Shown in pieces: positions 31,401-47,787 of a stretch of 64,000 bases of DNA. The notes beneath the pieces are model-generated. The model saw nothing but the letters and a program-made list of their open reading frames with translations, was not told the origin of the DNA and did no database searches. The DNA is from a virus. A program made the position numbers and the translations under genes. The stretch spans positions 32,001 through 96,000 of IMG/VR virus record IMGVR_UViG_3300045988_181536, one strand, 5' to 3'. Numbering within the stretch: position 1 is the first letter of the stretch; each line of letters opens with the position of its first letter.

Positions 31401-31513
31401 AAGAATTAAAAATATTTGTGGAATCGGGAGTGGTATTGCAACTTACCGAATGGAAAAAGCCCGCACGTGTTGTTGATCGTGAAGTATTTGAGTCTGCGCA
31501 ACGAACAAGTTGA
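28427..31513 (+). CDS. large hypothetical protein
   Basis: 1028-aa ORF with a strong SD-like sequence upstream. No recognisable motif. Confidence 0.45.
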   Translation: MRIKTIENIIDSVDPYFILKDLGFSIGQKPAKQIIDYTLRNCSANNYGDTGAEEADLILKESTLEDLPVDSADAMEAYYAKINGNLLRVLPFGYLNIDTLFQLSNTQEFLPLEKLEDKMFVAGTSIDMLAYYMRGDYTKAFKIFFKYYGVQLKSKLLHEPAYVEKALKHILIKRRNVLNIIVASLFAQPSELSHQFVETKKWMHRGNIRSIKGIGFPIDSVHLFYMLKFIADNNVLSYAPEIISLDQQDLKVKEDNSSFASFINGKLFKESNEWIVVPYFADYHIINSLKFINPRNNSCYQVYLNNYKNSFAGIYALDPHIDFNNTKVRVLENVYEAIVLHNYAKECLELEANNQCYIAVDLNTNEPNNLRSNLSAFRKLIFLNDYNSSLQTIKSLHDSLLLKDSTDADLYICDYHGYKEDNYLYTYNAFVENKYKTLIINAARTTATGVSSELQYLMNIFDVNQLPFKRRLFEWIKENNYTTVLQKLNAMSREMVEFNNFVIWETSDGYIVEPKDDPSNTQILSNFIIKVDQNIIFKDSEEIIHKGRLIMGGDQEYAIAFSKKDLLKKSAIEDLALKAYTRFTVTNLIEDDENIKLNLPTLFEGSDSPFYKNLISVIRHNINKAPCKYGTLSLGWDRANGVYTALAWQATALKFNLKSQNVFSFLSSQSNDTVECMSKDLKLCFSSDVPVRMSYKKYAKFLNSGVRDIISYIISVFYRQFLGYNTKPLYVYDSVNARNLIKFIFLALGQIAPFNVPTNDRFIKSKKLFNGLNEYPVYLRCKNMALLSETYPEYPYVIFVTQDNVTEDNEKEIYNVNYGLTAQAYKQVTKFALDSLSRFFKWMFSVNVEEFALDDQIASNGLQLIEEGNLIFNYLWWDNVLVACQSEINPTAALRDLLMSMTLRQVMGHLSYYPKGANGNGQYVFRKAMLPEGLTAKAHTLVYNCRKHKLGAYIKQQSNESWCSVYYAMNKEFVEDVLQDVMTKDGYPIRPEELKIFVESGVVLQLTEWKKPARVVDREVFESAQRTS

Positions 31514-31541
31514 AAAACTTTAAATAATTATGGTATATATA
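31510..31541 (+). promoter_or_regulatory. promoter TTGAAA-N-GGTATATATA
   Basis: -35-like ttgaaa and ggtatatata about 85 nt upstream of the 31625 ATG. The same architecture recurs at 32424 and 32784. Confidence 0.45.
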
Positions 31542-31624
31542 CCTAGAAAGGACATGTTAACTTTGACATACACTTTAAATAAACTGTTTAAAGTGGGAAA
31601 TACGTAAAGTTAGCATAAAAAATT

Positions 31625-32353
31625 ATGAACAATTGGAAAAAATATATTATAGAGTTTATTGCAGTAGTTATGGTTATTATAACTACTGGTTTTATCTCCT
31701 TGCATGTTAGAGAGTGGATAGCAAAATCTAAAACAAATACATCTCGGCTATTCAATTCTAAAAAATTCCTTGAGGAGCTGCCTCTTCATTATGACAATAA
31801 GCTACCCGCTGAGACAATTATATGCGACGATGAAATCTCGTTAACTCGCAGGGACAAACGAGCTATTTTGTTTGATGCTTTGTCGGATTATGTTGCAGCC
31901 AAAACATCTTATATGTTGTCCAACTGGCACAGCGATAATAAGACCATTGTCGTTAACTCTAGCCTTAAAGAAATTGCTGTGGAGCTGATGCGCAAAGATG
32001 TCATCGGCGATATGCCTAGCGTTTCTAAAGCGTTGGAGGATTCCGGCAATATGGCTTCTAAATTAATTGAAGAACAGAAGCAACTGCAACTGCAGAACAA
32101 AAACTATGTTACCGCAGAGGATATAATTATGTATTCGGAGTATTACAAAGAGCTATCTGAAAAATGTAAGTTGTTTGAAAATGCCGGATATAAGAAAGCC
32201 TTTTTAGCGGACGCTATAGGATATGGAATGCTAAAAGGTATAAGAACTGTAGCTGATAACATTGTTTGTTCAGAGGGATCAAAAATTGCCGTTAGAGTTT
32301 ATGACGCTACTGCATATTTAAATGAACAAATGCTAAAGTACTTGAATTTCTAA
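31625..32353 (+). CDS. membrane-anchored protein (N-terminal TM)
   Basis: N-terminal hydrophobic helix YIIEFIAVVMVIITTGFISL. Confidence 0.4.
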   Translation: MNNWKKYIIEFIAVVMVIITTGFISLHVREWIAKSKTNTSRLFNSKKFLEELPLHYDNKLPAETIICDDEISLTRRDKRAILFDALSDYVAAKTSYMLSNWHSDNKTIVVNSSLKEIAVELMRKDVIGDMPSVSKALEDSGNMASKLIEEQKQLQLQNKNYVTAEDIIMYSEYYKELSEKCKLFENAGYKKAFLADAIGYGMLKGIRTVADNIVCSEGSKIAVRVYDATAYLNEQMLKYLNF

Positions 32354-32375
32354 TATTTTAGTAGTTGTTTAATAA

Positions 32376-32409
32376 CTGCGACTTCCTTATATGAAGTCGC
32401 AGTTATTTT
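32376..32409 (+). terminator. rho-independent terminator
   Basis: aactgcgacttccttatatgaagtcgcagtt followed by attttttt. Confidence 0.65.
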
Positions 32410-32423
32410 TTTAATTATTACTA

Positions 32424-32455
32424 TTGAAAAAATTTAAATTTTTGCGGTATATATA
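32424..32455 (+). promoter_or_regulatory. promoter TTGAAA-N18-TATATATA
   Basis: ttgaaa at 32424-32429, 18-nt spacer, then ggtatatataat containing an overlapping TATAAT. Confidence 0.5.
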
Positions 32456-32540
32456 ATTGTGTAAGCTTTGAAGATAAATTCAGAGGATCGCGCGATGCTC
32501 TTTTTTTTTAATTTTTAATTTAACCATAGCTAAAAAAAAA

Positions 32541-32780
32541 ATGAAATATTTTAAATACTTGTTTTTATTAATATGTCCACTATTCCTTAGTAATGCCAAT
32601 GCGCAAGAATCTGTAATTATTAACGGACATACGCATATTGCCGTAACAGTCTTTGTCAACGGACAACCTAAAAAGATTTGGACGCATGATCCAAATGCTT
32701 GCGCAAAATGCACGCTGGATAAATTAAAAGAAACGAATCGGCAAATATTAAATCACTGGTATGGCGCTAAAAAGCCTTAG
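32541..32780 (+). CDS. small secreted protein (signal peptide)
   Basis: N-terminus MKYFKYLFLLICPLFLSNANAQE is a typical Sec signal. 79 aa. Confidence 0.4.
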   Translation: MKYFKYLFLLICPLFLSNANAQESVIINGHTHIAVTVFVNGQPKKIWTHDPNACAKCTLDKLKETNRQILNHWYGAKKP

Positions 32781-32783
32781 CAT

Positions 32784-32815
32784 GTGAAAAAATACCTTTA
32801 TTTGAGGTATATATA
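32784..32815 (+). promoter_or_regulatory. promoter GTGAAA-N17-GGTATATATA
   Basis: Third copy of the ggtatatata motif, upstream of the 32909 ATG. Confidence 0.4.
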
Positions 32816-32908
32816 TTTAGAAAAGTATTATTAACTTTAAGATGTGAAATATTATTCGATATTTCGCATTTTTTTTACTAATAACAAAAAAAAAAGAAAA
32901 GACCAAAA

Positions 32909-33427
32909 ATGGAAATAACTATAAATATCAATGGTAATTCTGAATATGAACTTTATAACGAGTTCATGGATAAATTACTTAAACTTCGCAAAAGTAATAA
33001 GACTGCAAAGACAACTGAGAAAAGATTTTTTTCTAAGCGCAGTCTTAGGGAACAATTTAAAACTATTCCGCCCTTCTGCATTAAAACTGCGGAATCGGTA
33101 TTTCCTGCAGAATATAAAGATATAGCAAAAGATTCCAAAAAACTTTGGCCTTTTGTTAACAATCTCAGAACTGCAAGATTTATCAAAACCTGTGGTTATA
33201 CAAAACCGAAAGGTTCAACGAGACTTTATGTCTCTTATTGCGGAGTGGACTATGATCCCGATAAAGCGTTTACAGTGGAAGCAGACGGCACAGTGTCTGT
33301 TGATCCACAGTTGCTTAATTGGAATCCATTCTCGCTTGGCGGAGATCTCGGTACGATAAAACCGGGGCACAATCTTATTATAGCAACCTCGGGTGTAATT
33401 GTTTCAAAGGAATTTGCCAATGAATAA
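32909..33427 (+). CDS. hypothetical protein
   Basis: 172-aa ORF. Confidence 0.4.
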   Translation: MEITININGNSEYELYNEFMDKLLKLRKSNKTAKTTEKRFFSKRSLREQFKTIPPFCIKTAESVFPAEYKDIAKDSKKLWPFVNNLRTARFIKTCGYTKPKGSTRLYVSYCGVDYDPDKAFTVEADGTVSVDPQLLNWNPFSLGGDLGTIKPGHNLIIATSGVIVSKEFANE

Positions 33428-33716
33428 CCGCAATACTTGGACTACGGCCAAGTTTCAAAAACGCTTAAAAGAATTTATGCGGGATAATCCGGATTTAACC
33501 GAATCTGAGGCCTGCAGTATTCTTGGAAAGCGTGGCGCTGAAAACCGTAAAAAATCACAACTATCACGTTGTGAAAAACAAAAGTCAGCGTCAGTGAATA
33601 TCCAAAATTTTACTGTAAATTTCTACTTGACGGAAGGTGATGGATATCACATAAAGGGAAAAATTAAAAACAAAAAATCCACTGGCAATAATGCGCAGCT
33701 GGAATTTGATTTCTAA
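33420..33716 (+). CDS. hypothetical basic protein
   Basis: Start moved to the ATGA overlap with the upstream stop (MNNRNTW...). Lys/Arg-rich. Confidence 0.35.
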   Translation: MNNRNTWTTAKFQKRLKEFMRDNPDLTESEACSILGKRGAENRKKSQLSRCEKQKSASVNIQNFTVNFYLTEGDGYHIKGKIKNKKSTGNNAQLEFDF

Positions 33717-33732
33717 TTTTTCCTTGCAATAT

Positions 33733-33803
33733 AGTCGCATGGTGTAATGGTAGCACAGATGATTTTGGTTCATTTAGTCTAGGTTCAAACCCTAGTGCGA
33801 CTA
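33733..33803 (+). tRNA. tRNA-Gln (anticodon TTG)
   Basis: Acceptor AGTCGCA/TGCGACT (7 bp). D-arm GTGT-AATGGTA-GCAC. Anticodon stem GATGA/TCATT with loop TTTTGGT. T-arm CTAGG-TTCAAAC-CCTAG. 71 nt, no encoded CCA. Confidence 0.8.
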
Positions 33804-33819
33804 TTGTTCTTTTTCAAAC

Positions 33820-34184
33820 GTCCTGGTGGCGAAACAGGTATACGCAGCAGACTTGACAATAATACAAAGGGTCGCCTACGAGAAATCGCTAGGTAAGCAT
33901 TCCGCGAATTGCTGGAACAGCCTTAGAGTCTCACAAACTACAACGTGGTTGGAAACGACGAGCGTGAAGGTTATAAAATTGTGGGAATTGGCCAATCAGC
34001 AGCCAAGGTCCGTTTAGGACAAGGTTCAGAGACTATGTACGGAACATCTAAACGATTTTATAAATCGCATGATGAAGATATAGTCCAATCAGAACATATT
34101 ATTATGGTTTGAGAAATCAAACAATCTGATGTAAAATCTGCTATCCGAAGGGATATGAGGGTTCGAGTCCCTCCCAGGACACCA
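33820..34184 (+). tRNA. tRNA-Leu (anticodon TAA) interrupted by a group I intron (exons 33820-33853 and 34132-34184, CCA encoded)
   Basis: Acceptor GTCCTGG/CCAGGAC. Discriminator A73 is the Leu identity element. D-arm GCG-AAACAGGTATA-CGC. Anticodon stem GCAGA/TCTGC split by the intron. Long variable arm ATCCGAAGGGAT. T-arm GAGGG-TTCGAGT-CCCTC. Spliced loop CTTAAAA gives anticodon UAA. Confidence 0.75.
33854..34131 (+). ncRNA. group I self-splicing intron in the tRNA-Leu(UAA) anticodon loop
   Basis: Core elements P AATTGCTGGAA (33907-33917), Q AATCAGCAGCC (33995-34005), R GTTCAGAGACTA (34024-34035), S AAGATATAGTCC (34075-34086). IGS GGGTC (33869-33873) can pair with exon GACU to give the U.G pair at the 5' splice site. 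Intron ends in G (omega-G, 34131). 278 nt, no ORF of consequence. Confidence 0.75.
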
Positions 34185-34214
34185 ATTTTAACTTAAAACA
34201 AAAGGAGTATAATT

Positions 34215-34277
34215 ATGGACTTCTCAACCGCTGCGTTGTTAATATTGTTCTTAGCTACATATAATATGATAGGCTAA
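34215..34277 (+). CDS. possible hydrophobic micropeptide (20 aa)
   Basis: aaaggagtataattATG, then MDFSTAALLILFLATYNMIG, followed by a strong hairpin terminator. Confidence 0.2.
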   Translation: MDFSTAALLILFLATYNMIG

Positions 34278-34300
34278 CGGCAAGATTAAATATCTTCATT

Positions 34301-34335
34301 TACAGTCTTCCTGCAGTAAGCACAGGAAGACTGTA
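34301..34335 (+). terminator. rho-independent terminator
   Basis: acagtcttcctgcagtaagcacaggaagactgt then aaatttt. 12-bp perfect stem. Confidence 0.55.
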
Positions 34336-34390
34336 AATTTTAATAATTAAAAAAAAGGAAATTTTTATTTCCTGATAGGAAGTTGCTAAT

Positions 34391-34726
34391 ATGAATGGAT
34401 TAAGCATAATATTGTTAGTACTTGTAATCGCCGGTATATGCACTTGGGGTATGGCCGGCATTTTTATTGTCCTAGGTTTGGCATGGTTAATTGCCTTTAC
34501 CATGGACAATATAAACAACCGCGTTGATGCAACAGCAAAAGCGCGTGAAGAAGAAGCCAGGCTGAAAGCTGAGGCTGAATATACTGTGAAAAAAGCATTT
34601 TATGATATGCGTGTTTCACAGTATAAAAAAGAGACTGCGAAACTGTTAAAAGAACAGATCGCAAAGGAGATTGCCAAGGAAGCCGACATAAATATGCCGG
34701 AGTTCTCGGAAGACTTTCCTCGTTAA
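34391..34726 (+). CDS. membrane protein with Lys/Glu-rich cytoplasmic tail
   Basis: Two N-terminal TM helices, then a charged coiled tail (KAREEEARLKAEAEYTVKK). Holin-like topology is possible but unproven. Confidence 0.4.
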   Translation: MNGLSIILLVLVIAGICTWGMAGIFIVLGLAWLIAFTMDNINNRVDATAKAREEEARLKAEAEYTVKKAFYDMRVSQYKKETAKLLKEQIAKEIAKEADINMPEFSEDFPR

Positions 34727-34869
34727 TTTATTAACTCAATTTCTTTGGAAGGGATGGGTTAATAAAGAGTGGTTTTGGTCCCTTTCTTCCACTCACCATC
34801 CCTTCCTTCCCTTTTGGCTAAACTGGCCAAATACAACAAACAATAACAATAAAACCTAGGTAAAATCAT

Positions 34870-35394
34870 ATGGCTAAAGTATCACGTACTAAAAACTTCA
34901 TCAACTTCGTCACGGTCGCTATACGCGATCAGATGGGAAACCTCTGGATTGTCGGAAGCAACCTTCCGGATAACCATGTTCTTCAAGTAAACGAAAAACA
35001 GACCACCTCAATCCGCAAGCTGTTTATGCAGGCGGAATTAATACAATCGAGAATGCCTAAAACGGCAAACTCGGGTCTTTTCGTATTCTGCCATCACGCC
35101 TCTACAAAGGCGCCGGAGTTCTCGAAGACACTCGTCTTCCAGAAATCCAAATTGGTAGAACTTTGGCAGGGAGGTTTCCCGCAGGCTAAATCGCTTCGCA
35201 TGGCTAACAAAGTCATCGAACAATTTAAACTGCAAGGCATAACGAAGTGGCACACGTCAGACGCTATACAGTGTTTCGACGATCAAAAAGTCTTCCAGGA
35301 ATTGGGATTTAGCTCCCTGGAAGATGACGAAGAAAAAGAAGCTAAAGCCGAGTCAAATCCCGAACCCAACGACCCCGCTGAAGCTACTGCATAA
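34870..35394 (+). CDS. hypothetical protein with acidic C-terminus
   Basis: 174 aa, ends DDEEKEAKAESNPEPNDPAEATA. Bidirectional terminator downstream. Confidence 0.45.
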   Translation: MAKVSRTKNFINFVTVAIRDQMGNLWIVGSNLPDNHVLQVNEKQTTSIRKLFMQAELIQSRMPKTANSGLFVFCHHASTKAPEFSKTLVFQKSKLVELWQGGFPQAKSLRMANKVIEQFKLQGITKWHTSDAIQCFDDQKVFQELGFSSLEDDEEKEAKAESNPEPNDPAEATA

Positions 35395-35430
35395 TTGATC
35401 TTCGGATCCTATAACTAACAAGGATCGGGT

Positions 35431-35456
35431 GTGTTATGCACCCGATCCTTATTATT
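35431..35456. terminator. bidirectional terminator between convergent genes
   Basis: ggatcgggtgtgttatgcacccgatcc flanked by T/A runs on both sides. Confidence 0.6.
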
Positions 35457-35479
35457 TTTTTAGCTATGGGTATATAGCA

Positions 35480-35731
35480 TTATTTTCCAAATAGTTGGAT
35501 ACACTCCCTCCATACTGCGGCAACCTTGCGGCTATATTCGCGTTTTTCGGTTTCACGTACTTTCTCCGGCAAATCCGAAGTCTTGGTTTTGGCAAAATCT
35601 TTAGTTTGCTTTTTTGTTAATTTATCCGCAACTTCTTTAGCTTTGCCGCTTAATTCATCTTCTTTATGTTGCTTTTTGGCACCATAAATCATTCCAAAAA
35701 ATCTTTGTTGTGCTTTTGATTTTGCAGGCAT
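35480..35731 (-). CDS. small basic conserved phage/bacterial protein (KAQQRFFGM-type)
   Basis: 83 aa, MPAKSKAQQRFFGMIYGAKK... followed by Lys-rich segments. Resembles a widespread small uncharacterised family. Assignment from memory only. Confidence 0.4.
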   Translation of the reverse strand: MPAKSKAQQRFFGMIYGAKKQHKEDELSGKAKEVADKLTKKQTKDFAKTKTSDLPEKVRETEKREYSRKVAAVWRECIQLFGK

Positions 35732-35875
35732 AACTTCTTAAAAAAATCAGATTTTATTGTCGCGTCATTTTTAAAAATCGTCAACGGAAAAATTAGCTTA
35801 AAAAAAATAGTTGCCAAATTTCAATCATCTACAATACATTATCTCACACTAACCTAAAACTAAAAAAAACAAACT

Positions 35876-36451
35876 ATGATAAATACTGACAGTATCACAT
35901 GGTACGTGGGCTGCGTGCTTGCTGGCGTTATGGCCGCGCTTGTAGGCTGCTCACTTATAAAAGACGGTGAAACCGTAAACTGGGACAAGGTTGATACAAT
36001 CTCGTCTCTTGTACAAACAACCGCGCAGGTTTCTACCTACGCCGTATGCGTTAAAAATCCGGATCTCTCTCCCGTGTTTAAGGCGATCGGCGAAGGGCTG
36101 GTGCTAATATCAGCATCCCCCGATTCCGAGCAAATGAAACCGGAACAGATTCAGGATTATATCAAAGACCTGCTGTCTGAAAAAGAATGGGGCAGCCTTG
36201 CCGGTCAGGTAAACGGTGTTATGGATACGCTTCTGGGTATCTATGGCAATTTCATAGAAGCTAACCAGGATAAGTTTACCGACGAAGCAAAAGTTTTTGC
36301 CCGTGTGCTAAACTCGATGGGCAAGGGTCTAATATCAGGCAGTGTAGTAGACGTGGCAAGCAGCGCCAAAGCTACAGCGGATCTGGAAAAACAGAAGTCT
36401 GAGCTGATAAATAAGCTAAAGGATATGGATCTCTCCGTATCCGAGGACTAA
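35876..36451 (+). CDS. membrane-anchored hypothetical protein
   Basis: N-terminal TM (WYVGCVLAGVMAALVGCSLI). Terminator follows. Confidence 0.45.
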   Translation: MINTDSITWYVGCVLAGVMAALVGCSLIKDGETVNWDKVDTISSLVQTTAQVSTYAVCVKNPDLSPVFKAIGEGLVLISASPDSEQMKPEQIQDYIKDLLSEKEWGSLAGQVNGVMDTLLGIYGNFIEANQDKFTDEAKVFARVLNSMGKGLISGSVVDVASSAKATADLEKQKSELINKLKDMDLSVSED

Positions 36452-36460
36452 TCTATAGTT

Positions 36461-36488
36461 AACTTGACAAGACGGCGTTGCAAAATAC
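36461..36488 (+). terminator. rho-independent terminator
   Basis: aagacggcgttgcaaaatacgccgtctt followed by tttt. Confidence 0.6.
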
Positions 36489-36524
36489 GCCGTCTTTTTT
36501 AAACTTTAAAAAGAAAGACGAAGC

Positions 36525-36746
36525 ATGAAAAAACAAATCAACACAAAAGGTAAACGATTAAAGAAACGTGTAGTCAAAAAATTAACTGTAGATTTTTCCA
36601 ATAGGTATAATAATATTATGGATGTGGATTTTTTAATTTGCGCAAGCGCCAAATTGCCACAGGATATTTTAGAATCTAAACTCGATGGCACTATTAGTCC
36701 GATAGGCTTTGGGTGTTATAGAAAACAAAGAATTGATTATTATTAA
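36525..36746 (+). CDS. small basic protein
   Basis: 73 aa, Lys/Arg-rich N-terminus. Weak call. Confidence 0.25.
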   Translation: MKKQINTKGKRLKKRVVKKLTVDFSNRYNNIMDVDFLICASAKLPQDILESKLDGTISPIGFGCYRKQRIDYY

Positions 36747-36770
36747 TTTAAACTAAAAACAAGGAACTAT

Positions 36771-37271
36771 ATGATCGCTGCATCTTACTTCTCTGATACA
36801 ACTTTTGCCGTTATTTTTATCACAGGCGTTATACTGCTAGTATCTTATTGTGCTGTTAAATATGCCGGATTTAATACTGCAACTCAAGGTGATGAGTTGA
36901 TTGAAGACCGTAACCATACACATCCAACTGCCGAGAAACATCCGGTAATTATTGTAAAAAGAATAACTTATACAAAATTTGTCGATCGAAAGTTTAAATT
37001 GGCTTTGTCTACAAAGCATTATAAAAAATTTGCGCAATTTAAACATAAATTAGTTTTGCATATACCCACGGACACAATGGCTGACGCAGAAAAGGAAGTT
37101 GAAATGTTTGACCATTTTCTAAAAACTTTTCCGCATGATAAAAAACGGCTATTTGGTGCGAGATTTAGTGCTGGAAACGGCGATGTAATTGTGGCGGTTG
37201 GCATGGCATCATTAAAAGATAAACAGGAATTTTTAGCAGCCTTAAGAGAACAAAACGTAATCATTCTTTAA
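36771..37271 (+). CDS. membrane-anchored hypothetical protein
   Basis: N-terminal TM FAVIFITGVILLVSYCAV. 166 aa. Confidence 0.4.
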   Translation: MIAASYFSDTTFAVIFITGVILLVSYCAVKYAGFNTATQGDELIEDRNHTHPTAEKHPVIIVKRITYTKFVDRKFKLALSTKHYKKFAQFKHKLVLHIPTDTMADAEKEVEMFDHFLKTFPHDKKRLFGARFSAGNGDVIVAVGMASLKDKQEFLAALREQNVIIL

Positions 37272-37272
37272 C

Positions 37273-37962
37273 ATGCAGACTAAAAAACTTATTGTTGTTG
37301 AAGCTTGCGACGGGTGTGGAAAAACCACACTCGTTAATAATTTATGCAAACTGTTTGAAAAACGAGACGGCTTTAAACCCGTTTGTGTAAAAGAGCCTTG
37401 GGAAGGTTCGGAAATAGGCACGTTTATTCGTTCTTGGATTAAGCATGTAGATTTTTCAACCAGTGAACTAAAAAAGGAACAAGCATTATTGCTGTTCTCT
37501 GCAGCCCGACTGGAAATGTTGGAGCAATTTTTATTAAAAGAATTAGTTCGTAAAGACGATAACGATTCGCCAATCATCCTTTGCGACAGATTTGTTTTGT
37601 CTACTTGCGTTTATCAAAATCTTAAGTCAGAAGCTCCTTTGTGCTTGCCAAGGTTAACGCAAGCGATTTTAAGCACGATAGCAGATTTGCTTAAAGTTGA
37701 TTGTACGTTGTATTTGGATTTAGACGCCGAAGTCATTGTTGACAGGCTAAATAAACGCAAAGAAAAGTCCGATGTAATGGATCAAAAGGACGTAACATGG
37801 TTTAATCAATTAAGCGGAACTTACAGTCATCAAATACAAATACTTCAGCATGATTATCCCACGCTGCTTGGCATGCTGCATTATCTTGATGCAAGCAAAT
37901 ATGCCGAAGTTGTTGCGGAGGATGCTTATGCATTTTTGAAAAGACATATCCTTAAAAACTAA
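37273..37962 (+). CDS. tmk: thymidylate (dTMP) kinase
   Basis: P-loop VVEACDGCGKTT matches the TMK ExxDGxGKTT signature. LCDRFVLSTCVYQ matches the TMK DRY/xSxxAYQ motif. Start overlaps the upstream stop. Confidence 0.7.
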   Translation: MQTKKLIVVEACDGCGKTTLVNNLCKLFEKRDGFKPVCVKEPWEGSEIGTFIRSWIKHVDFSTSELKKEQALLLFSAARLEMLEQFLLKELVRKDDNDSPIILCDRFVLSTCVYQNLKSEAPLCLPRLTQAILSTIADLLKVDCTLYLDLDAEVIVDRLNKRKEKSDVMDQKDVTWFNQLSGTYSHQIQILQHDYPTLLGMLHYLDASKYAEVVAEDAYAFLKRHILKN

Positions 37963-38659: not shown

Positions 38660-38796
38660 AACCGATATTAAGATCGCTGATTAACCAAGCCATCCGTGCA
38701 AAATCTATTTTACAGACGGGTCGAGCATTTCATGCCACCATCGCTTTAAAAGGAAGCAAAGTAATAGCTATCGGATGTCAACTACTCACCAGATGA
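38656..38796 (+). pseudogene. N-terminal fragment of a CDA-fold (dCMP/TadA-like) deaminase truncated by IS insertion
   Basis: MKPILRSLINQAIRAKSILQTGRAFHATIALKGSKVIAIGC resembles the deaminase N-terminal strand/helix. Reading frame runs into the IS end at about 38776 and terminates. Confidence 0.35.
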
Positions 38797-40136
38797 ACTA
38801 GTGAGCTTGATTTATATGTTTAAATCAATTTTAGACACTTCATTGCTTATGCTTGTTAAATCCTTAGTAGGCTTATCAAGTCTTATTTCAGCTCCATGTC
38901 TGTAATCATCCGTTGCAGATGATAGGATTGTTAATCCTCTTGTTAAAATATTTTTAGCAGCATTAACATCTCTGTCTAAAACTGTTCCGCATTGGGGACA
39001 TACCCAAAATCTATCTTTTAAAGTTAGGCTTTGATTAATATATCCGCAATTATGACAAGTTTTTGACGAAGGGTAAAAATGGTCTATTTTAATTATCTTC
39101 TTACCTTTCCATGCTGCTTTATATTCTAATTTTTGTATCATGCTATTCCAAGAGACATCTGCAATAGCATAAGCCAATTTATGATTTTGCATCATATTTT
39201 TAACAGCTAATGTCTCTAAACAAATTACATCATATTTGTTTAACAACAAGGTACTTAGTTTATGTTGCATATCTTCACGAGAATTGGTTATCTTTTCATG
39301 AAGTTTTGCTATTTTAATTCTAAGTTTTTCTTTTCTATTAGAACCTTTTTGTTTTTTGGAAAAGTGTTTTTGAAGCTTGGATAGTTTTGATTGATATTTC
39401 TTTTGAAATTTTAAGTTGGGATATCGTTTACCATCAGATGTTATAGCAAAATCTTTAATTCCCAAATCTATGCCCACTGCTTTTGTTAAATCTGCAGCAT
39501 CAGGAATACATACGTTTTGTTCTGTTAAAATAGAAACATAATATTTGCCTGACGGTTTTTTAGAAATTGTCGCACTACAAATTTTACCTTTTAAAGGTCT
39601 ATGATTAACAAACTTTATACCGTTCTTAAATTTGGGAATATATATTTTATCATTTTTAATAGCTACATTCTGTGGAACATTAAAAGAATTGTTTCCGTCT
39701 TTACGTTTAAACTTGGGAAATTTAGACTTTTTACTAAAGAATTTTCCAAAAGCCGTTTCTAAATTTTTTAATGATTGTTGAAGGCTTTGGGAATTAACAT
39801 CTTTTAACCACACATATTCCTTTTGCTTTTTAAGTGTAGTTAGAGCTTGTGAGCAATTATTGTAATTTAAAGTCTTTTTATTTTTAAGGTAAAATTCCTG
39901 TTTCTCTTTAAGAAAGTAATTATATACAAATCGGCAATGCCCAAAATGCAATGATAATAGTTCTTTGTCTTCAGGTGAGGGGTAAAGCCTATATTTATAG
40001 GATTTGTATATTGTTTTATTCATTATTTAAGTTAAACTAAAAACTACTTAGAATCAAATAGCAACAAAAAAAAATAAGAATCTATAATAACTTAAACAAA
40101 ACCCCACCATTCATCTTACCAGACAAGCTGGTAAGT
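38776..40136 (-). mobile_element. IS200/IS605-family insertion element carrying tnpB only (IS1341-like)
   Basis: TnpB ORF flanked by subterminal hairpins: ctcaccagatgaactagtgag (38783-38803) at the 3' end and cttaccagacaagctggtaag (40115-40135) at the 5' end. No tnpA. Flanking sequence on both sides encodes pieces of one deaminase-like gene. Confidence 0.6.
38812..40023 (-). CDS. tnpB: TnpB (OrfB) RNA-guided endonuclease / IS605-family transposase accessory protein
   Basis: N-terminal OrfB_IS605 HTH (YKYRLYPSPEDKELLSLHFGHCRFVYNY), RuvC-like core, C-terminal zinc ribbon CHNCGYINQSLTLKDRFWVCPQCGTVLDRDVNAAKNI. Confidence 0.8.
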   Translation of the reverse strand: MNKTIYKSYKYRLYPSPEDKELLSLHFGHCRFVYNYFLKEKQEFYLKNKKTLNYNNCSQALTTLKKQKEYVWLKDVNSQSLQQSLKNLETAFGKFFSKKSKFPKFKRKDGNNSFNVPQNVAIKNDKIYIPKFKNGIKFVNHRPLKGKICSATISKKPSGKYYVSILTEQNVCIPDAADLTKAVGIDLGIKDFAITSDGKRYPNLKFQKKYQSKLSKLQKHFSKKQKGSNRKEKLRIKIAKLHEKITNSREDMQHKLSTLLLNKYDVICLETLAVKNMMQNHKLAYAIADVSWNSMIQKLEYKAAWKGKKIIKIDHFYPSSKTCHNCGYINQSLTLKDRFWVCPQCGTVLDRDVNAAKNILTRGLTILSSATDDYRHGAEIRLDKPTKDLTSISNEVSKIDLNI

Positions 40137-40139
40137 TTT

Positions 40140-40319
40140 CTGGTGGAAATTAATAAAATTACGATTGTTAACCTAAGAATTGATAACAATAACCAAGTAG
40201 CAAACGCAAAACCTTGTGTAAACTGTCAACGAGTTTTAAAACAATTTAATTTTAAACATATTTTTTATACCAATGAGCAAGGGCAATTTGAAGAGTTTAA
40301 GATTGCGGTCGAAGATTAA
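40140..40319 (+). pseudogene. C-terminal fragment of the CDA-fold deaminase
   Basis: ...ANAKPCVNCQRVLKQFNFKHIFYTNEQG... contains the PCxxC zinc-binding motif of cytidine/dCMP/tRNA-adenosine deaminases. In frame from the IS boundary to a stop at 40319. Confidence 0.4.
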
Positions 40320-43610: not shown

Positions 43611-44228
43611 ATGTCCAATTCCAACGAAACAAACAACAAAAAACCAAAGCTTCAATTAGAAGCGGTATATAAAGCGTTAGAGGATCCTAATACTTTTGCT
43701 ACGGTATTATTGACCATATGTCTAATTCAATACGGCGAAGAAACATTTAAGGTGGATCCTTTAGTATTATTTGCATGGTTGGAGGAAGATTTTGGCCTGG
43801 AATTAAATGAAGATAACCAAAATAAGTTAAATGCCATAATAACAGCATTAACTACGGATTATTTTTATAATGATTTGCAGACTTTTAAAGCCATCTGTAA
43901 AACGCTTACAAGTGGAGATCCTGGAATTGTAGAAACTGATTTGGATGCTGATGAAGTAACGGTGCCGGAAATTCTTTGGGGTATTTATGAAGTAAGTTTG
44001 TGTAATGACGACGAAGTAGTAAATACGTATAAATTTAATAGCGTAATTAAAAGTTTTATTAACGTCGTTTTAAAAAATGAACCCATGGATCAAACTTTAG
44101 AGTTGAATCCTGAAGAATTAAATATCATAAAACATAATTGTAACGAAATAAAACTGCAATTAATGAATTTGGGAATTAAAAATCTTCCTAAATTTCCAGA
44201 AATTGAAGTTAACACCGATAACGAGTAG
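43611..44228 (+). CDS. acidic hypothetical protein
   Basis: 205 aa, Asp/Glu-rich. Confidence 0.4.
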   Translation: MSNSNETNNKKPKLQLEAVYKALEDPNTFATVLLTICLIQYGEETFKVDPLVLFAWLEEDFGLELNEDNQNKLNAIITALTTDYFYNDLQTFKAICKTLTSGDPGIVETDLDADEVTVPEILWGIYEVSLCNDDEVVNTYKFNSVIKSFINVVLKNEPMDQTLELNPEELNIIKHNCNEIKLQLMNLGIKNLPKFPEIEVNTDNE

Positions 44229-44296
44229 TAGCGCAATCTGGTTAGTGCACCTGCTTTGGGAGCAGGGGGTTGGGGGTTCAAATCCCTCCTACTCGA
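44222..44296 (+). tRNA. tRNA-Pro (anticodon TGG)
   Basis: Acceptor CGAGTAG/CTACTCG. D-arm GCGC-AATCTGGTTA-GTGC. Anticodon stem CCTGC/GCAGG with loop TTTGGGA. T-arm GGGGG-TTCAAAT-CCCTC. Discriminator A. 75 nt. Confidence 0.75.
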
Positions 44297-44397: not shown

Positions 44398-44470
44398 GCC
44401 AGCTTAGCTCAATTGGTAGAGCAATGGCTCCATAAACCATAGGTTGTCGGTTCAAGTCCGGCAGCTGGCA
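44398..44470 (+). tRNA. tRNA-Met or tRNA-Ile2 (anticodon CAT), elongator type
   Basis: Acceptor GCCAGCT/AGCTGGC (G1:C72). D-arm GCTC-AATTGGTA-GAGC. Anticodon stem ATGGC/ACCAT with a 31:39 C-A mismatch, loop TCCATAA. Position 33 is C rather than U, which is unusual. T-arm GTCGG-TTCAAGT-CCGGC. Confidence 0.6.
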
Positions 44471-44506
44471 CCGTTTTCTGTATTATAAACTAGCAAATAT
44501 CTATCT

Positions 44507-44731: not shown

Positions 44732-45043
44732 ATGAATAAACTACCAGCAGAAGACATAACCTATTTGGCGTGCATCTGGGAAAAACTACACGCCGACAGG
44801 GATATAGTCTTATCTCAAAGATACGTGGAAATAACGGTATTGCGAGTATTTAAAGCAAGCAACGGGCAGTGCTATTACAAAATCGAAATTAGGAATCCCA
44901 AAGGTTTCACGGAACATTGGGTGCCTGAAGAAATTTTTTCTAAATACACGCTGACCAATGAAAACCAATTTAAGAAAATTGAAATCATTGATGAGCTGCC
45001 CTCGCCTAAACCGAAGCAACGGTTGTATTTCGATTCCGAATAA
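44732..45043 (+). CDS. hypothetical protein
   Basis: 103 aa. Converges on the terminase gene. Confidence 0.4.
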   Translation: MNKLPAEDITYLACIWEKLHADRDIVLSQRYVEITVLRVFKASNGQCYYKIEIRNPKGFTEHWVPEEIFSKYTLTNENQFKKIEIIDELPSPKPKQRLYFDSE

Positions 45044-46931
45044 TATTTCGCATATCCCTGCCGTATTTGAAATAGTTTCGGAAAAGCTCCATGCCTACTT
45101 CGTCTTCAAATAAAGACTCACCTAATATAAGCTTTGCCAGTATAGTGGCATAGTTTACCGCATGTAACATGTCATCTGTTTTGGTTCCTGGTTTTGTATA
45201 TAAAAATCCCGTTACACCTTGCTGAGTTTCCCAGGGTACACGAGTTAAAACCAAGAAATCTTTTAAATATTCCATCGAATGTTCCCACCTAGGTGCACGT
45301 ATACGGCTGTTTTTTATGTCCATAAATAAGGTCGTAATGCTGTCAGTGCGGTGCAAGGAATACAAATTAAACATTTCGGACTTTTTCGGTATGGAGAGAA
45401 ATGTGCCTGTAGGTTTATATTTGAACATTATAACCTTTAAAGGATCCATAAGTTTTTTAATTTCATTTGCGTATACAGCGCCTCCACCATAGTCATTTGC
45501 TAAAGCATAACCTCCGAATTTATGATGATCATTAGCAATGCAATGGGTTATGTCATCATAATCCATGCCTGCATATTTCTTCATGTGAATAATATCAAAT
45601 TTTTTATCCGGAGTAACACCAATAATACAGTGTGCAGTATATGAAGCTTTGGAGCGTGATGCAGGATTATAATCAGATCCACCCCAGTCACAGCCGGAAA
45701 CTTTAAAAATATATTTAGGAGGTACGGCAGAAATTGCTTGTTTTTGCACGTCGTGTATGTCGCCTAAAATGCATATATTCTGCAAATCTCTGGTTGTTAA
45801 TTCTTTGGTTCCGGATTCCGTGGCTTCGCCCAGATACTCTTCCAAGAAAGATTTTTTATCTGAAGATTGGGAAGCTTTATAGATATCCAAATATATGGAT
45901 TGTTTTTCAGTATTTGCAGGAACGATAATCTGCGGAATATGGAATCCCCATAGTCCATACTTTAACATTTCCGGCGCTTCGAAATCCCAACAACCATCAC
46001 GGACATTTAAGACACGTCCGCATTTTAAACAACATAATCCCTTGGGTTGAATCATATCTAAAACATTATGATTTAAGTCGGGATAATTGTCAAAGTGGCA
46101 AGCAGGACATGTCATGCGCCAAAGCCCCCTCGAAGATTCTAACCAACGTTGTTCTAAGGGAGTATCAACTGATTTAGATGTGCCGCCATATACTACTGAT
46201 CTAAATTCGGAACGAGACTGGGTGGACTTAATAACACGCTCTAATGTATCATCAAAATCTTGATATTCGTCAAAATTTATCCAATCGAAAGTAGGTGAAC
46301 GCATTTTCGACGCATCGGAAAGAACATAATACATTCTATGCAAAGACATACGCGCTTTGCCGTGATCGTATTCTTTATAATAAAGATTTGTTTTAAACTT
46401 TGGATTGCGTTTATTGGGTTGAAATCTATAAGCCTGCTCAATTTCTTTGGATTTATATCCCAATGTTCTTAACTGATCCATTCGGGGCACAATCGTCGCA
46501 ATTCTTAAACCGGGAATAATACGACAATATAAATCGGCAGCCAACAGCATATTAGTGGTATTATGGCTTAAAATACCATTAGTAAAATAAGTATGAGAAG
46601 TGTCATTTTTTAATGTCACGTCATACATGGGAACTGCAGGACTATTTTGTTTATCTACAGAGATGATCTTGGAAATACCCTCTTTCGTTATCACCGATTC
46701 ATCCAGAGAATCCTTAGCATGAATCATTTGTCCATCCTTGGAAATAATCCCGTGTGTATCTGCGCAATTTAATGTCTTGTTGTTGGCCGTCTTAATTTGC
46801 CAGACATCAAAAGGTATCGTTTTATGAATAATATCAATATCTTCCCAGCCGTTCGACGTTTCTATCTGCCAATCTTCAATGGCATAACTTTCGGTAAATT
46901 TGGGATTTAAGGATTCAACTTTCTTGGACAT
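45006..46931 (-). CDS. terL: terminase large subunit, C-terminal portion (post-P-loop ATPase plus nuclease) preceded by an intein C-terminal (Hint) fragment
   Basis: ATG at 46931; the track start at 47045 is TTG followed by hydrophobic junk. Intein block B NCADTHGIISKDGQMIHAKDSL, block F/G MYDVTLKNDTSHTYFTNGILSHN|T. The extein starts exactly where T4 gp17 resumes after GK of SRQLGKTT (TNMLLAADLYCRII ~ TVVAIFLAHFVCF). Walker B WINFDEYQDF. Motif III YGGTSKS. Nuclease motifs VSGCDWGGSDY...HCIIGV and TKTDDMLHAVNYA. Confidence 0.7.
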   Translation of the reverse strand: MSKKVESLNPKFTESYAIEDWQIETSNGWEDIDIIHKTIPFDVWQIKTANNKTLNCADTHGIISKDGQMIHAKDSLDESVITKEGISKIISVDKQNSPAVPMYDVTLKNDTSHTYFTNGILSHNTTNMLLAADLYCRIIPGLRIATIVPRMDQLRTLGYKSKEIEQAYRFQPNKRNPKFKTNLYYKEYDHGKARMSLHRMYYVLSDASKMRSPTFDWINFDEYQDFDDTLERVIKSTQSRSEFRSVVYGGTSKSVDTPLEQRWLESSRGLWRMTCPACHFDNYPDLNHNVLDMIQPKGLCCLKCGRVLNVRDGCWDFEAPEMLKYGLWGFHIPQIIVPANTEKQSIYLDIYKASQSSDKKSFLEEYLGEATESGTKELTTRDLQNICILGDIHDVQKQAISAVPPKYIFKVSGCDWGGSDYNPASRSKASYTAHCIIGVTPDKKFDIIHMKKYAGMDYDDITHCIANDHHKFGGYALANDYGGGAVYANEIKKLMDPLKVIMFKYKPTGTFLSIPKKSEMFNLYSLHRTDSITTLFMDIKNSRIRAPRWEHSMEYLKDFLVLTRVPWETQQGVTGFLYTKPGTKTDDMLHAVNYATILAKLILGESLFEDEVGMELFRNYFKYGRDMRNIIRNRNTTVASV

Positions 46932-47004
46932 TTGTGAGTAATACAATATTAAGACTATATTATACGCAAGAAAAATTTCAAACTTAAAAATAGAAAGGAA
47001 AATT

Positions 47005-47787
47005 ATGCCAAATTGGGCGAATACAAATATAATCTTTTTCAGCAACGATGAAAAACAATTACAAGAATTATATAGCGTGATTTTTTATCGTGCGCCTAAT
47101 GCTTATGTGGAGGATATAAAACCGCTTTTAAATTCTAATTCTATAGGGAGCGGGTGGCTTGGTGCAATTCTTTACGAGTTAAAAGAAATTACTTTAGAAC
47201 AAATCGATAAGGACAATATTCCCGCAGATTTGCATTGCAGGGGTTGGGTGGAATTTGGTATTGACAGTGAACTTGTTCCAGAAAGAATCCCTAATCCTTA
47301 TTTGCAAAAGGATAAGCCAAGTTGGAGATTTGAAATTTTTACATATGATGCTTGGGAACCCAACATGAAAATGTGGGATTATATTATCAAAAAGCATTTT
47401 CCTGATGTGAAATTTGTTTATCGTAGCGAAGAAGGCGGTAATGGATTTTATGTAAATTCTGACTACCTACGTTTCTATTTTGACGAAGAATATATAGTTG
47501 ATTTAACCATCGATTTCGATAATTGTTCAGAATCAATCAAGAATATTTTTAAACCCGATGGTTCAACAGGAACCTGTGATTATTGTGAATATTTTGAATA
47601 TTATAATTTTCACGATTTTTGCAATTTCTTGAAGAGAAATTTTCGAGATGTTGGAGAAATCACAACCAAAGAAGATGCAGAGAAAGAAATCAAAAGAATA
47701 ACTGATGCTTTTGCAGCAGAGGATAATTCTGATTCTTGGTGCTACATTAACACATTTGACACTCCTGAAATTAGGTATGGACTCTGA
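47005..47787 (+). CDS. MPNW-start hypothetical protein (paralog 1)
   Basis: 260 aa. Preceded by the 34-bp leader ttaaaaatagaaaggaaaattatgccaaattggg, identical to the one at 48265. Confidence 0.45.
   Translation: MPNWANTNIIFFSNDEKQLQELYSVIFYRAPNAYVEDIKPLLNSNSIGSGWLGAILYELKEITLEQIDKDNIPADLHCRGWVEFGIDSELVPERIPNPYLQKDKPSWRFEIFTYDAWEPNMKMWDYIIKKHFPDVKFVYRSEEGGNGFYVNSDYLRFYFDEEYIVDLTIDFDNCSESIKNIFKPDGSTGTCDYCEYFEYYNFHDFCNFLKRNFRDVGEITTKEDAEKEIKRITDAFAAEDNSDSWCYINTFDTPEIRYGL

Follow-up and report, generated by a model that had tools for sequence, protein, structure and literature searches.

A compact group I intron in the anticodon loop of a phage tRNA-Leu(UAA) gene and its HNH endonuclease-bearing relatives

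What kind of gene begins and ends like a tRNA but encloses a long interior? The question is raised by positions 33820-34184 of a 64,000-nucleotide (nt) stretch of viral DNA, positions 32,001 to 96,000 of IMG/VR record IMGVR_UViG_3300045988_181536 (the whole stretch is called the window here). A preliminary description of the window had read them as a phage tRNA-Leu(UAA) whose anticodon loop is broken up by a 278-nt group I intron, and both Rfam and ARAGORN in intron mode bore this out. Our analysis indicates that this is very likely a tRNA-Leu(UAA) gene into which a 278-nt group I ribozyme lacking an open reading frame (ORF) has been inserted between U33 and U34, the ribozyme being a deletion derivative of a mobile intron family bearing HNH endonucleases.

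ARAGORN in intron mode called 33820-34184 (+ strand) as a tRNA-Leu(taa) gene with a 278-nt intron. In default mode the split gene was not called, and the list for the window contained tRNA-Gln, tRNA-Pro and tRNA-Met and no transfer-messenger RNA (tmRNA). A covariance-model search, proposed in the preliminary description, matched the Rfam family Intron_gpI (RF00028) at 33851-34105 (+ strand) with 68.7 bits (gathering threshold 50, E = 2.4e-15) over model positions 1-253 of 253, the sole group I intron in the 64-kb window, and a P2-P9 fold was found. The gene and its immediate neighbor are laid out as follows.

33732-33804, + strand: intron-less tRNA-Gln(UUG), 15 nt upstream of tRNA-Leu (ARAGORN, Rfam)
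33820-33853, + strand: 5' exon of tRNA-Leu(UAA), 34 nt, with acceptor 5' strand, D arm, anticodon stem 5' strand, C32 and U33 (ARAGORN)
33854-34131, + strand: group I intron, 278 nt, no ORF (Rfam; exactly missing from the related contigs L096 and L100)
34131, + strand: omega-G, the final intron nucleotide, with the 3' splice site between G34131 and U34 (34132)
34132-34184, + strand: 3' exon of tRNA-Leu(UAA), 53 nt, with U34 A35 A36, anticodon stem 3' strand, long variable arm, T arm, acceptor 3' strand, A73 and encoded CCA

Joining 33820-33853 to 34132-34184 in silico gave an 87-nt class II tRNA cloverleaf with a 7-bp acceptor stem (GTCCTGG/CCAGGAC), the anticodon stem GCAGA/TCTGC, the loop CUUAAAA, a T arm and an encoded CCA, together with the long variable arm and the A73 that the preliminary description had foreseen. 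The DNA leaves the junction ambiguous by one T (…GACT/T…GATG/T…). Because group I chemistry wants a U as the last exon base and a G as the last intron base, the intron was assigned to 33854-34131, between U33 and U34. The intron begins with T in the window and with C in five relatives, one of which, L002 (loci outside the window carry L numbers), retains …GATG/TAAAATC. The C at this position in L002 establishes that the +1 base is intronic, that U34 comes from the 3' exon and that the insertion site is 33/34. The earlier wording, a tRNA split "after U33/U34", was thus correct as to the anticodon loop, and the exact junction is now fixed between U33 and U34.

The boundaries were seen directly in related phages. 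L096 and L100, which are syntenic with the window and 94-97% identical to it, carry an uninterrupted tRNA-Leu(UAA) behind the same upstream tRNA-Gln, and they were among five carriers found when viral contigs were searched for the spliced-junction sequence. Their alignments to the window end at 33854 and restart at 34132, their tRNA equals the in-silico spliced product save for one extra G in the D loop, and Rfam scored the uninterrupted genes at 57.2 bits as tRNA. These alleles serve as a natural "cDNA" of the exon junction. The pairing of tRNA-Gln with tRNA-Leu was also present in L002, L096 and L100, and the spacing of the two genes suggests that they are probably co-transcribed.

The 5' splice site lies in a P1 helix formed between the exon and the intron.

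33850-33854, + strand: P1 5' strand, made of exon G30 A31 C32 U33 and intron +1; partner 33869-33873, 5' splice site after U33 (33853)
33869-33873, + strand: internal guide sequence (IGS) GGGUC, the P1 3' strand, which pairs with exon GACU (33850-33853)

The IGS, its pairing with the exon and the terminal omega-G were all present as predicted, and U33 (33853) pairs with G33870 as a U.G wobble at the splice site. P1 was tabulated apart from the rest of the fold because relatives fall into two site classes with different exon registers. In the 33/34 introns (the window, L002, L030, L071 and the short-type L018) the IGS reads NGGUC and pairs C-G30, U-A31, G-C32 and G.U33; the U33.G wobble occurs in every 33/34 intron examined, and the pair of the +1 base covaries, being U.G in the window, C-G in L002 and A-U in L030 and L071. 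Among introns of the window's long type inserted at 34/35, the IGS is GAGUC in four of six (L012, L022, L038, L064), giving a U33-A pair and a U34.G wobble; L060 and L085 have GAGCC, which leaves an A.C mismatch. What separates the two classes is therefore a single IGS base and an additional U after omega-G, and the wobble tracks the splice site in both site classes checked. In a 2026 survey of group I introns in bacterial tRNA genes, the canonical insertion sites are 34/35 for tRNA-Leu and 33/34 for tRNA-fMet (PMC13011429). The claim that the position matches the cyanobacterial and plastid tRNA-Leu(UAA) intron did not hold, since the window site, 33/34, is one nucleotide off the canonical 34/35.

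The remainder of the intron folds as a group I core. The P, Q, R and S elements of the preliminary description, AATTGCTGGAA, AATCAGCAGCC, GTTCAGAGACTA and AAGATATAGTCC, were recovered as the segments that align to P4 5', P4 3', J6/7-P7 and J8/7-P7' of the Rfam model, and the helices could be assigned as listed here.

33875-33893, + strand: P2 hairpin with GAAA tetraloop and bulged C 33889 (RNAfold -7.5 kcal/mol; 6/7 pairs compensatory)
33900-33904, + strand: P3 5' strand UUCCG, partner 34040-34044 (100% of cells paired; 4/5 pairs compensatory)
33910-33915, + strand: P4 5' strand UGCUGG (the P element), partner 33996-34001 (Rfam alignment; family-invariant)
33920-33992, + strand: P5 with an extra P5a/P5b domain (RNAfold -19.8 kcal/mol; covariation in P5 and P5b)
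33920-33922/33990-33992, + strand: P5; 33930-33936/33979-33985: P5a; 33944-33951/33956-33964: P5b, with GAAA loop
33996-34001, + strand: P4 3' strand UCAGCA, inside the Q element (Rfam alignment, family alignment)
34003-34024, + strand: P6/P6a hairpin (100% paired; 3/4 inner pairs compensatory)
34029-34035, + strand: P7 5' strand G-A-GACUA, inside the R element, predicted guanosine-binding helix (pseudoknot with 34081-34086; invariant)
34040-34044, + strand: P3 3' strand CGGAA (family alignment)
34045-34074, + strand: P8 hairpin, outer 34045-34048/34071-34074, inner 34053-34058/34062-34067 (RNAfold; outer 100% paired, 2/4 compensatory)
34081-34086, + strand: P7 3' strand UAGUCC, inside the S element (Rfam alignment, family alignment)
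34088-34130, + strand: P9 34088-34093/34125-34130 enclosing P9a 34107-34112/34117-34122, with GAAA loop (RNAfold -11.6 kcal/mol)

The fold was tested on ten family members aligned with MAFFT after removal of the P1-loop insert, against a hand-drawn structure that included the P3/P7 pseudoknot. In the P2-P9 fold, 91.9% of 590 cells (59 pairs) were standard pairs, compared with 25-43% when the 3' partners were slid by 1-3 columns, a control made somewhat favorable by the drawing of the structure from the window and one relative; the alignment was not fitted to the structure. Changes on both sides were seen in 32 pairs, the covariation score was 0.474 against 0.04-0.15 for the slid partners, and none of 500 shuffles matched any observed fold measure. 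Covariation was found in P2, P3, P5, P5b, P6, P8, P9 and P9a (in the last, 5/5 pairs were compensatory), and P4 and P7 were invariant, as expected for the catalytic center. The 5' strand of P7 is one that we take to match Tetrahymena P7. Only 4 nt (34036-34039) separate P7 from the 3' strand of P3, so that P7.1/P7.2, the hallmark of subgroup IA, is absent. GAAA tetraloops occur on L2, L9a and P5b; those on L2 and L9a, together with the compactness of the intron, are presumably features shared with Azoarcus/Anabaena-type introns.

Variation among close relatives followed the same structure. The intron is carried at strain level by the window, L002, L226, L232, L252 and L257, and is absent from L096 and L100. 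Across the six carriers, whose flanks are 90-97% identical, it varies at 12 positions: nine in L1, L6 and the P9 loop, one at the bulged C of P2, one in a P2 pair and one at +1 (U.G to C-G). None of the 122 helix positions of P3-P9 varied, and over the whole intron 10 changes were among the 136 unpaired positions and 2 among the 142 paired ones (Fisher p = 0.018). This conservation of the helices argues against a dead intron, while falling short of proof of activity.

The relatives also bear on the origin of the intron. L002, an IMG/VR contig of 172,784 bp, is 96-97% identical to window positions 31481-37453, and the existence of near-identical phages without the intron points to recent gain or loss, not to ancient inheritance. 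Intron mobility, which the preliminary description had suggested, is supported by this precise presence and absence among close relatives and by the endonuclease-bearing relatives described below. IMG sample 3300045988 holds empty sites (L096, L100), ORF-less introns (L002 at 33/34 and L085 at 34/35) and endonuclease-bearing introns (L030, L041, L060, L069); L071 and L258, from other samples, have degenerate introns of 480 nt without an ORF that look like deletion intermediates. By analogy with known homing introns, this series of states suggests the one expected from invasion, ORF decay and loss. In that series the window stands for an intron without endonuclease that has become established in one portion of a phage population.

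To collect the relatives, IMG/VR was scanned for the consensus of the P7 3' strand followed 60-90 nt further on by a T-loop motif, which yielded 90 loci. Thirteen of these are of the window's long-P5 type. Three of the thirteen lack an ORF, namely L002, L085 and L008, the last a truncated locus placed here solely on BLAST similarity. The other ten are 480-817 nt long, and 9/10 hold an ORF of 162-236 aa with the motif HH.D.NP.NN…H.KLH; the HNH-type ORFs of L261, L030, L012 and L060 are 198-236 aa long. Pfam HNH_3 scored above its cutoff in L012 and L060 and below it in L030 and L041. The closest full-length relative, L261, has the identical exon context (ACGCAGCAGACT before the intron, G as its last base and TAAAATCTGCTATCC after it). 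Its intron is 752 nt long, scores 78.2 bits in Rfam and is 82% identical to the window from L1 to P7'. The 203-aa ORF of L261 lies mostly where the window has L1, the most variable part of the intron within the window lineage, and its 3' end continues into the shared …AATACAAAGGGTCGCCTACGAGAAATCG; this end overlaps …GAATACAAAGGGTCGCCTACGAGAAATCGTTAGG…, and the window has …AATACAAAGGGTCGCCTACGAGAAATCGCTAGG… right after the following 14-nt loop.

33855-33868, + strand: L1 loop GACAATAATACAAA, 14 nt, probable scar of the deletion of an HNH homing endonuclease ORF (comparison with L261)

The position of the L261 ORF indicates that the window L1 is the scar of a deletion of ~475 nt. In the full-length introns the HNH ORF begins in the P1 loop and runs in frame through the IGS, P2, P3, P4, P5 and P6, and its C-termini share NCWNSL…TTTWLET…VKVIK… because they are translated ribozyme core. 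The conserved tail peptides NCWNSL, TTTWLET, VKVIK, EGSETMH and EDIVQTTT, seen in the long-type introns L012, L022, L030, L038, L060, L064, L261 and others, correspond to translated P4, P5a/b, P6, P7 and P9 RNA. The window core, translated by hand in the ORF frame, reads NCWNSLRVSQTTTWLETTSVKVIKLWELANQQPRSV followed by a stop and matches these C-termini; the frame stops within P6. The read-through tail may be part of a functional protein or a mere run to the first stop. No endonuclease ORF was present within the 278-nt intron, and no endonuclease gene adjoining the window tRNA was found. Comparison of the window proteins with the other intron-bearing loci by tblastn, over the available regions, showed no relationship, suggesting that the intron family moves between unrelated phages. 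Judged by its sequence, the window intron appears to be what remains, without the ORF, of an HNH-bearing mobile family whose targets are tRNA-Leu(UAA) genes of unrelated large phages.

The wider kinship of the ribozyme was examined by BLAST. Of 50,697 GenBank phage records searched with the locus by blastn, 287 matched, always at ~33906-34036 (P4-P5ext-P6-P7) with 72-84% identity. Five nearest phage loci were inspected: three interrupt a named gene (Twort nrdE, a T5-like DNA helicase and the beta subunit of a jumbo-phage RNA polymerase), and two lie in gaps flanked by genes for hypothetical proteins (Escherichia phage nepoznato and Bacillus phage BpSp). The match to Twort nrdE was 79.6-83.6% identical over about 100-120 nt of P4-P6, with homology confined to P4-P7. 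A pattern scan of bacterial genomes gave at least 120 loci; of the 120 listed, 80 were called as tRNAs with an intron, chiefly Arg(UCU), Ser and Asn. The window intron had no BLAST match among the 120 bacterial tRNA-intron loci listed, and short Azoarcus-like viral tRNA introns matched 18-49 of the same 120. By these patterns the nearer kin of the window ribozyme are the introns of phage protein genes, and the sampled bacterial tRNA introns are more distant. Its structure fits neither the classical IA/IA2 subgroup, since P7.1/P7.2 is lacking, nor plain IC3, since it has the extra P5a/P5b domain; phage introns in general fit the old subgroup scheme poorly (PMC11878797).

From these elements a splicing route can be proposed. 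In a precursor containing tRNA-Gln and tRNA-Leu, the IGS GGGUC would pair with G30-A31-C32-U33 to form P1, displacing the lower anticodon stem, and a free guanosine occupying P7 would attack after U33. The omega-G (34131) would then take the same P7 site, and the 3'-OH of U33 would attack after G34131, which would join the exons into the 87-nt tRNA, free the intron and allow the anticodon stem to re-form. The anticodon stem presumably holds the exons together; in the Anabaena pre-tRNA intron the exons are reportedly aligned by it. On this model the phage would need splicing to obtain a tRNA-Leu reading UUA and UUG, and an HNH-driven family would have colonized tRNA-Leu(UAA) of unrelated large phages at two adjacent sites. 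Since the intron disrupts the presumed HNH target, the gene is probably immune to cleavage by endonuclease-bearing relatives. It is plausible, by the same analogy with homing introns, that the intron acts as immunity against, or is a relic of, intron-endonuclease warfare between co-infecting phages.

The locus lies in a genome with a phage organization, namely densely packed ORFs that nearly all run in one direction, a G+C content of about 36% and four tRNA genes including the split tRNA-Leu. The features that bear on its identity and tRNA complement are these.

44222-44296: tRNA-Pro (ARAGORN)
44398-44472: tRNA-Met(CAT) (ARAGORN)
45006-47045, - strand: terminase large subunit (phrog_675, 1.3e-30)
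57054-59246, + strand: polynucleotide kinase-phosphatase (Pnkp)/RNA ligase fusion, 730 aa (phrog_8238, 1.8e-185)

PHROG and Pfam gave next to nothing for the ten largest ORFs of the window. No GenBank phage has a terminase more than about 25% identical to this one, and neither the locus (by megablast) nor a 655-aa ORF (by tblastn) matched anything among those phages. IMG/VR and metagenomes contain further near-identical contigs of 167-174 kb, one of which, L257 (OYZN01000009), is labelled human gut. We take the window to come from a phage of a lineage without a cultured relative. In twelve large ORFs of the window, 49.7% of Leu codons are UUA and 17.8% are UUG, so that tRNA-Leu(UAA) would serve ~67% of the Leu codons of the phage. 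Pnkp/RNA-ligase is a tRNA-repair enzyme and a phage defense against host anticodon nucleases. A role of the intron in evading such nucleases, considered on account of this gene, found no support, and no link between the gene and the intron was found.

Two observations concern other parts of the same genome. A TnpB/IS605-OrfB gene occupies 38812-40023 (- strand; Pfam Cas12f1-like_TNB, OrfB_IS605 and HTH_OrfB_IS605), and ~1.4 kb around it (about 38777-40152) is missing in L096, L100 and L232, which are 93-96% identical and whose alignments jump from 38776 to 40153; the segment looks like a recent polymorphic IS insertion. The tRNA-Met(CAT) at 44398-44472 is about 90% identical to positions 1207-1279 of L100, called tRNA-Thr(TGT) by ARAGORN and tRNA by Rfam, and the difference may reflect an anticodon switch between strains.

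Several points weigh against the reading of the locus as a spliced intron derived from an HNH-bearing family in a phage genome. We infer catalytic activity and splicing in vivo from the group I class, and the immunity of the gene to cleavage is a probable one drawn by analogy with T-even and SPO1-type phages; the specificity of the endonucleases of the HNH relatives is likewise presumed. Within the ribozyme, P5a is only 57% paired on the MAFFT alignment, probably an alignment-register problem, the P9 of the window abuts omega-G in a register unlike most relatives, and a P10 pairing is not evident in the window intron. Among the relatives, L085, L030 and L071 gave no Intron_gpI match at the Rfam gathering threshold and owe their membership to alignment and motifs, and the ORF of L261 was called HNH by its HH.D.NP.NN...H.KLH motif and its likeness to the ORFs scanned with Pfam. 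The phage call, finally, draws on the terminase match, the IMG/VR classification and gene organization, the large structural ORFs being unmatched.

Some of these points would suit a decayed remnant that no longer splices, leaving tRNA-Leu a pseudogene and the phage reliant on host tRNA-Leu: the endonuclease ORF is lost, P10 is not evident, P9 has its atypical register, and related phages function with an uninterrupted gene. We consider this quite unlikely, because the core helices are all intact and have stayed so in six genomes while the loops varied, the sole change in P1 improves its pairing, the Rfam score is well over threshold, the exons equal the intron-less alleles save for one D-loop base, and the intron form recurs in six independent assemblies. 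A different history, the one implied by the preliminary description, would make the intron an ancient one of the cyanobacterial and plastid tRNA-Leu(UAA) type (IC3), acquired with a host tRNA gene. The same tRNA species and anticodon loop, the GAAA loops on L2 and L9a and the compact form would accord with such a history, as would the short Azoarcus-like tRNA introns of other viral contigs. It is very unlikely in view of the 33/34 site, which differs from the canonical 34/35 (PMC13011429), the complete lack of BLAST matches among the listed bacterial tRNA-intron loci, against 18-49 for the short viral introns, and the 287 matching phage records with all five nearest loci in or between protein-coding genes. 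The extra P5a/P5b domain is, moreover, common to Twort nrdE-type introns, and near-identical phages lack the intron.

That the locus is bacterial chromosome carrying an ordinary bacterial tRNA intron appears highly improbable. Most large ORFs have no PHROG or Pfam match and a TnpB insertion element is present, but the terminase, the phage-typical Pnkp/RNA-ligase fusion, the four tRNA genes and the dense, near-unidirectional ORFs indicate a phage, contigs of about 167-174 kb that are 94-97% identical recur in IMG/VR and metagenomes, and no bacterial housekeeping gene was found among roughly 30 ORFs scanned. A tmRNA, or some other structured RNA that resembles a tRNA and has a coding segment inside, would explain tRNA-like ends about 365 nt apart, and phage tmRNAs exist (L030). 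It is virtually out of the question here: neither the ARAGORN tmRNA search nor Rfam RF00023 reported anything, and the locus yields a complete tRNA with a UAA anticodon, a full-length group I interior and intron-less alleles. The preliminary description had rightly set a tmRNA aside, as the spliced ends give an anticodon arm.

The split gene of the window is one of many in viral sequences, where such genes are common but go unannotated. ARAGORN found tRNA introns of >100 nt in about 30 of the 90 IMG/VR loci, about 27 of which fit, or could be re-set to fit, the rule of U at -1 and omega-G, and a metagenome scan gave 23 further intron-split tRNAs, most of them Leu(UAA) at 33/34. Short (~200-240 nt) Azoarcus-like introns occur in Leu(UAA), Arg(UCU) and Ile(UAU) genes of putatively viral IMG/VR contigs of 5-467 kb (L013, L015, L017, L021, L025, L029, L031, L045, L082, L090 and L092), and the four that Rfam recognized scored 58-69 bits. 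A cultured jumbo phage, Agrobacterium phage Atu_ph07 (MF403008.1), has a tRNA-Leu(UAA) split at 34/35 by a 278-nt Azoarcus-like intron (L223 951-1312, about 112,890-113,251); GenBank places the "hypothetical protein" AUZ94936 over part of the gene, and Rfam Intron_gpI misses the intron, which aligns end to end with Rfam-positive short-type introns. In the 595-kb uncultured phage LR756511.1 (L221 568-1354), a record without annotation, a tRNA-Leu(UAA) is split at 34/35 by an intron of 700 nt that contains an HNH-motif ORF (…HHIDGDRKNNELDNLKLLCPNCH…).

Not all candidates survived inspection. The ARAGORN calls "Phe(gaa)" (L041/L064/L069) and "Glu(ttc)" (L022/L077) are most likely Leu(UAA) mis-splits and were re-set by the U(-1)/omega-G rule, calls at L010, L063 and L081 that violate the rule were left out, and L001, the sole match of a first anticodon-stem-plus-gap pattern in viral contigs, was a chance match inside coding sequence with no Rfam match. 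In L048 and L067 (IMG/VR 3300021426_000172 and 3300001486_000079) ARAGORN called a tRNA with anticodon UCA and a 192-nt intron whose boundaries break the U(-1) rule, and the call may be a mis-split. If true, it would be an intron-containing opal-suppressor tRNA in a virus and would bear on the problem of "missing" suppressor tRNAs noted for recoded phages (PMC7886860). L030 (IMG/VR 3300045988_150962) also encodes, in a large tRNA cluster, a tmRNA at 5623-5972 (- strand; Rfam 84.5 bits) about 770 nt downstream of its split tRNA-Leu.

A 2014 review placed all phage group I introns then known in protein-coding genes, despite the many phage tRNA genes (PMC3984707), and a full-text search, with most subscription journals outside its coverage, turned up no account of phage tRNA genes that carry group I introns. 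The preliminary description had called the finding unusual; this is true relative to the literature (PMC3984707) and not of sequence data, where intron-split tRNAs are recurrent in viral contigs. The gap reflects annotation rather than biology, since default ARAGORN misses the window gene, Rfam misses the Atu_ph07 intron and GenBank lists a "hypothetical protein" there. Both the class of ribozyme and the anticodon-loop niche were known already; the novelty lies in a phage as the carrier, a P4-P6 domain of phage type, insertion at 33/34 of a tRNA-Leu and the connection with HNH homing. Because default tRNA finders miss split genes, phage tRNA inventories would be systematically incomplete, perhaps including the suppressor tRNAs of recoded phages.

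More broadly, and tentatively, phage tRNA genes may form a substantial undescribed niche of mobile group I introns, in which one HNH-driven family with a phage-type P4-P6 domain occupies two adjacent sites through an A-to-G change of one IGS base that moves the U.G wobble, introns act as weapons or shields, and tRNA inventories are incomplete. If so, endonuclease-bearing introns could be weapons and ORF-less ones shields in mixed infections, and the 33/34 and 34/35 classes would be a natural case of splice-site sliding. The empty, endonuclease-bearing, degenerate and ORF-less forms at two adjacent sites offer a comparison set for asking how an HNH endonuclease recognizes a tRNA gene, how one IGS base relocates a splice site and what tRNA introns do in phage competition. 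The tRNA and suppressor-tRNA counts of large and recoded phages merit an intron-aware recount.

Among known systems, the cyanobacterial and plastid tRNA-Leu(UAA) intron resembles the window intron in being a compact, ORF-less group I ribozyme that interrupts this tRNA species within its anticodon loop, with P1 drawn from anticodon stem-loop nucleotides, GAAA tetraloops on P2 and P9 and exon alignment presumably by the anticodon stem. It differs in its site, 34/35 (PMC13011429), whereas the window intron is inserted at 33/34, has an extra P5a/P5b domain of ~70 nt, is phage-borne, is polymorphic among near-identical genomes and derives from an HNH-bearing mobile form. The introns of phage protein genes (Twort nrdE-I2, Staphylococcus phage DW2, T5-like helicase and jumbo-phage RNA polymerase beta, usually labelled IA2) are 72-84% identical over P4-P5ext-P6-P7, are likewise phage-borne, have relatives with HNH endonucleases and show the presence/absence polymorphism typical of homing introns; the window intron differs from them in its tRNA host gene and in the absence of P7.1/P7.2, and its full-length relatives carry the endonuclease ORF in the P1 loop and through the core, whereas the ORF of Twort nrdE-I2 lies in P6 (PMC4853749). 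The coexistence of empty, endonuclease-bearing, ORF-less and degenerate states, known here from sequences alone, would parallel the homing life cycle and marker exclusion of T-even and SPO1/SP82 phages. Bacterial tRNA genes offer a further parallel. There, introns occur at nearly every anticodon-loop position and are overlooked by standard annotation tools, and non-IC ribozymes and HNH endonucleases in anticodon loops include IA-type introns at 35/36 in Patescibacteria and an HNH-bearing intron in a Bacteroidota tRNA-Leu(UAA) (PMC13011429). The survey that describes them covers complete bacterial genomes only, and no phages (PMC13011429).

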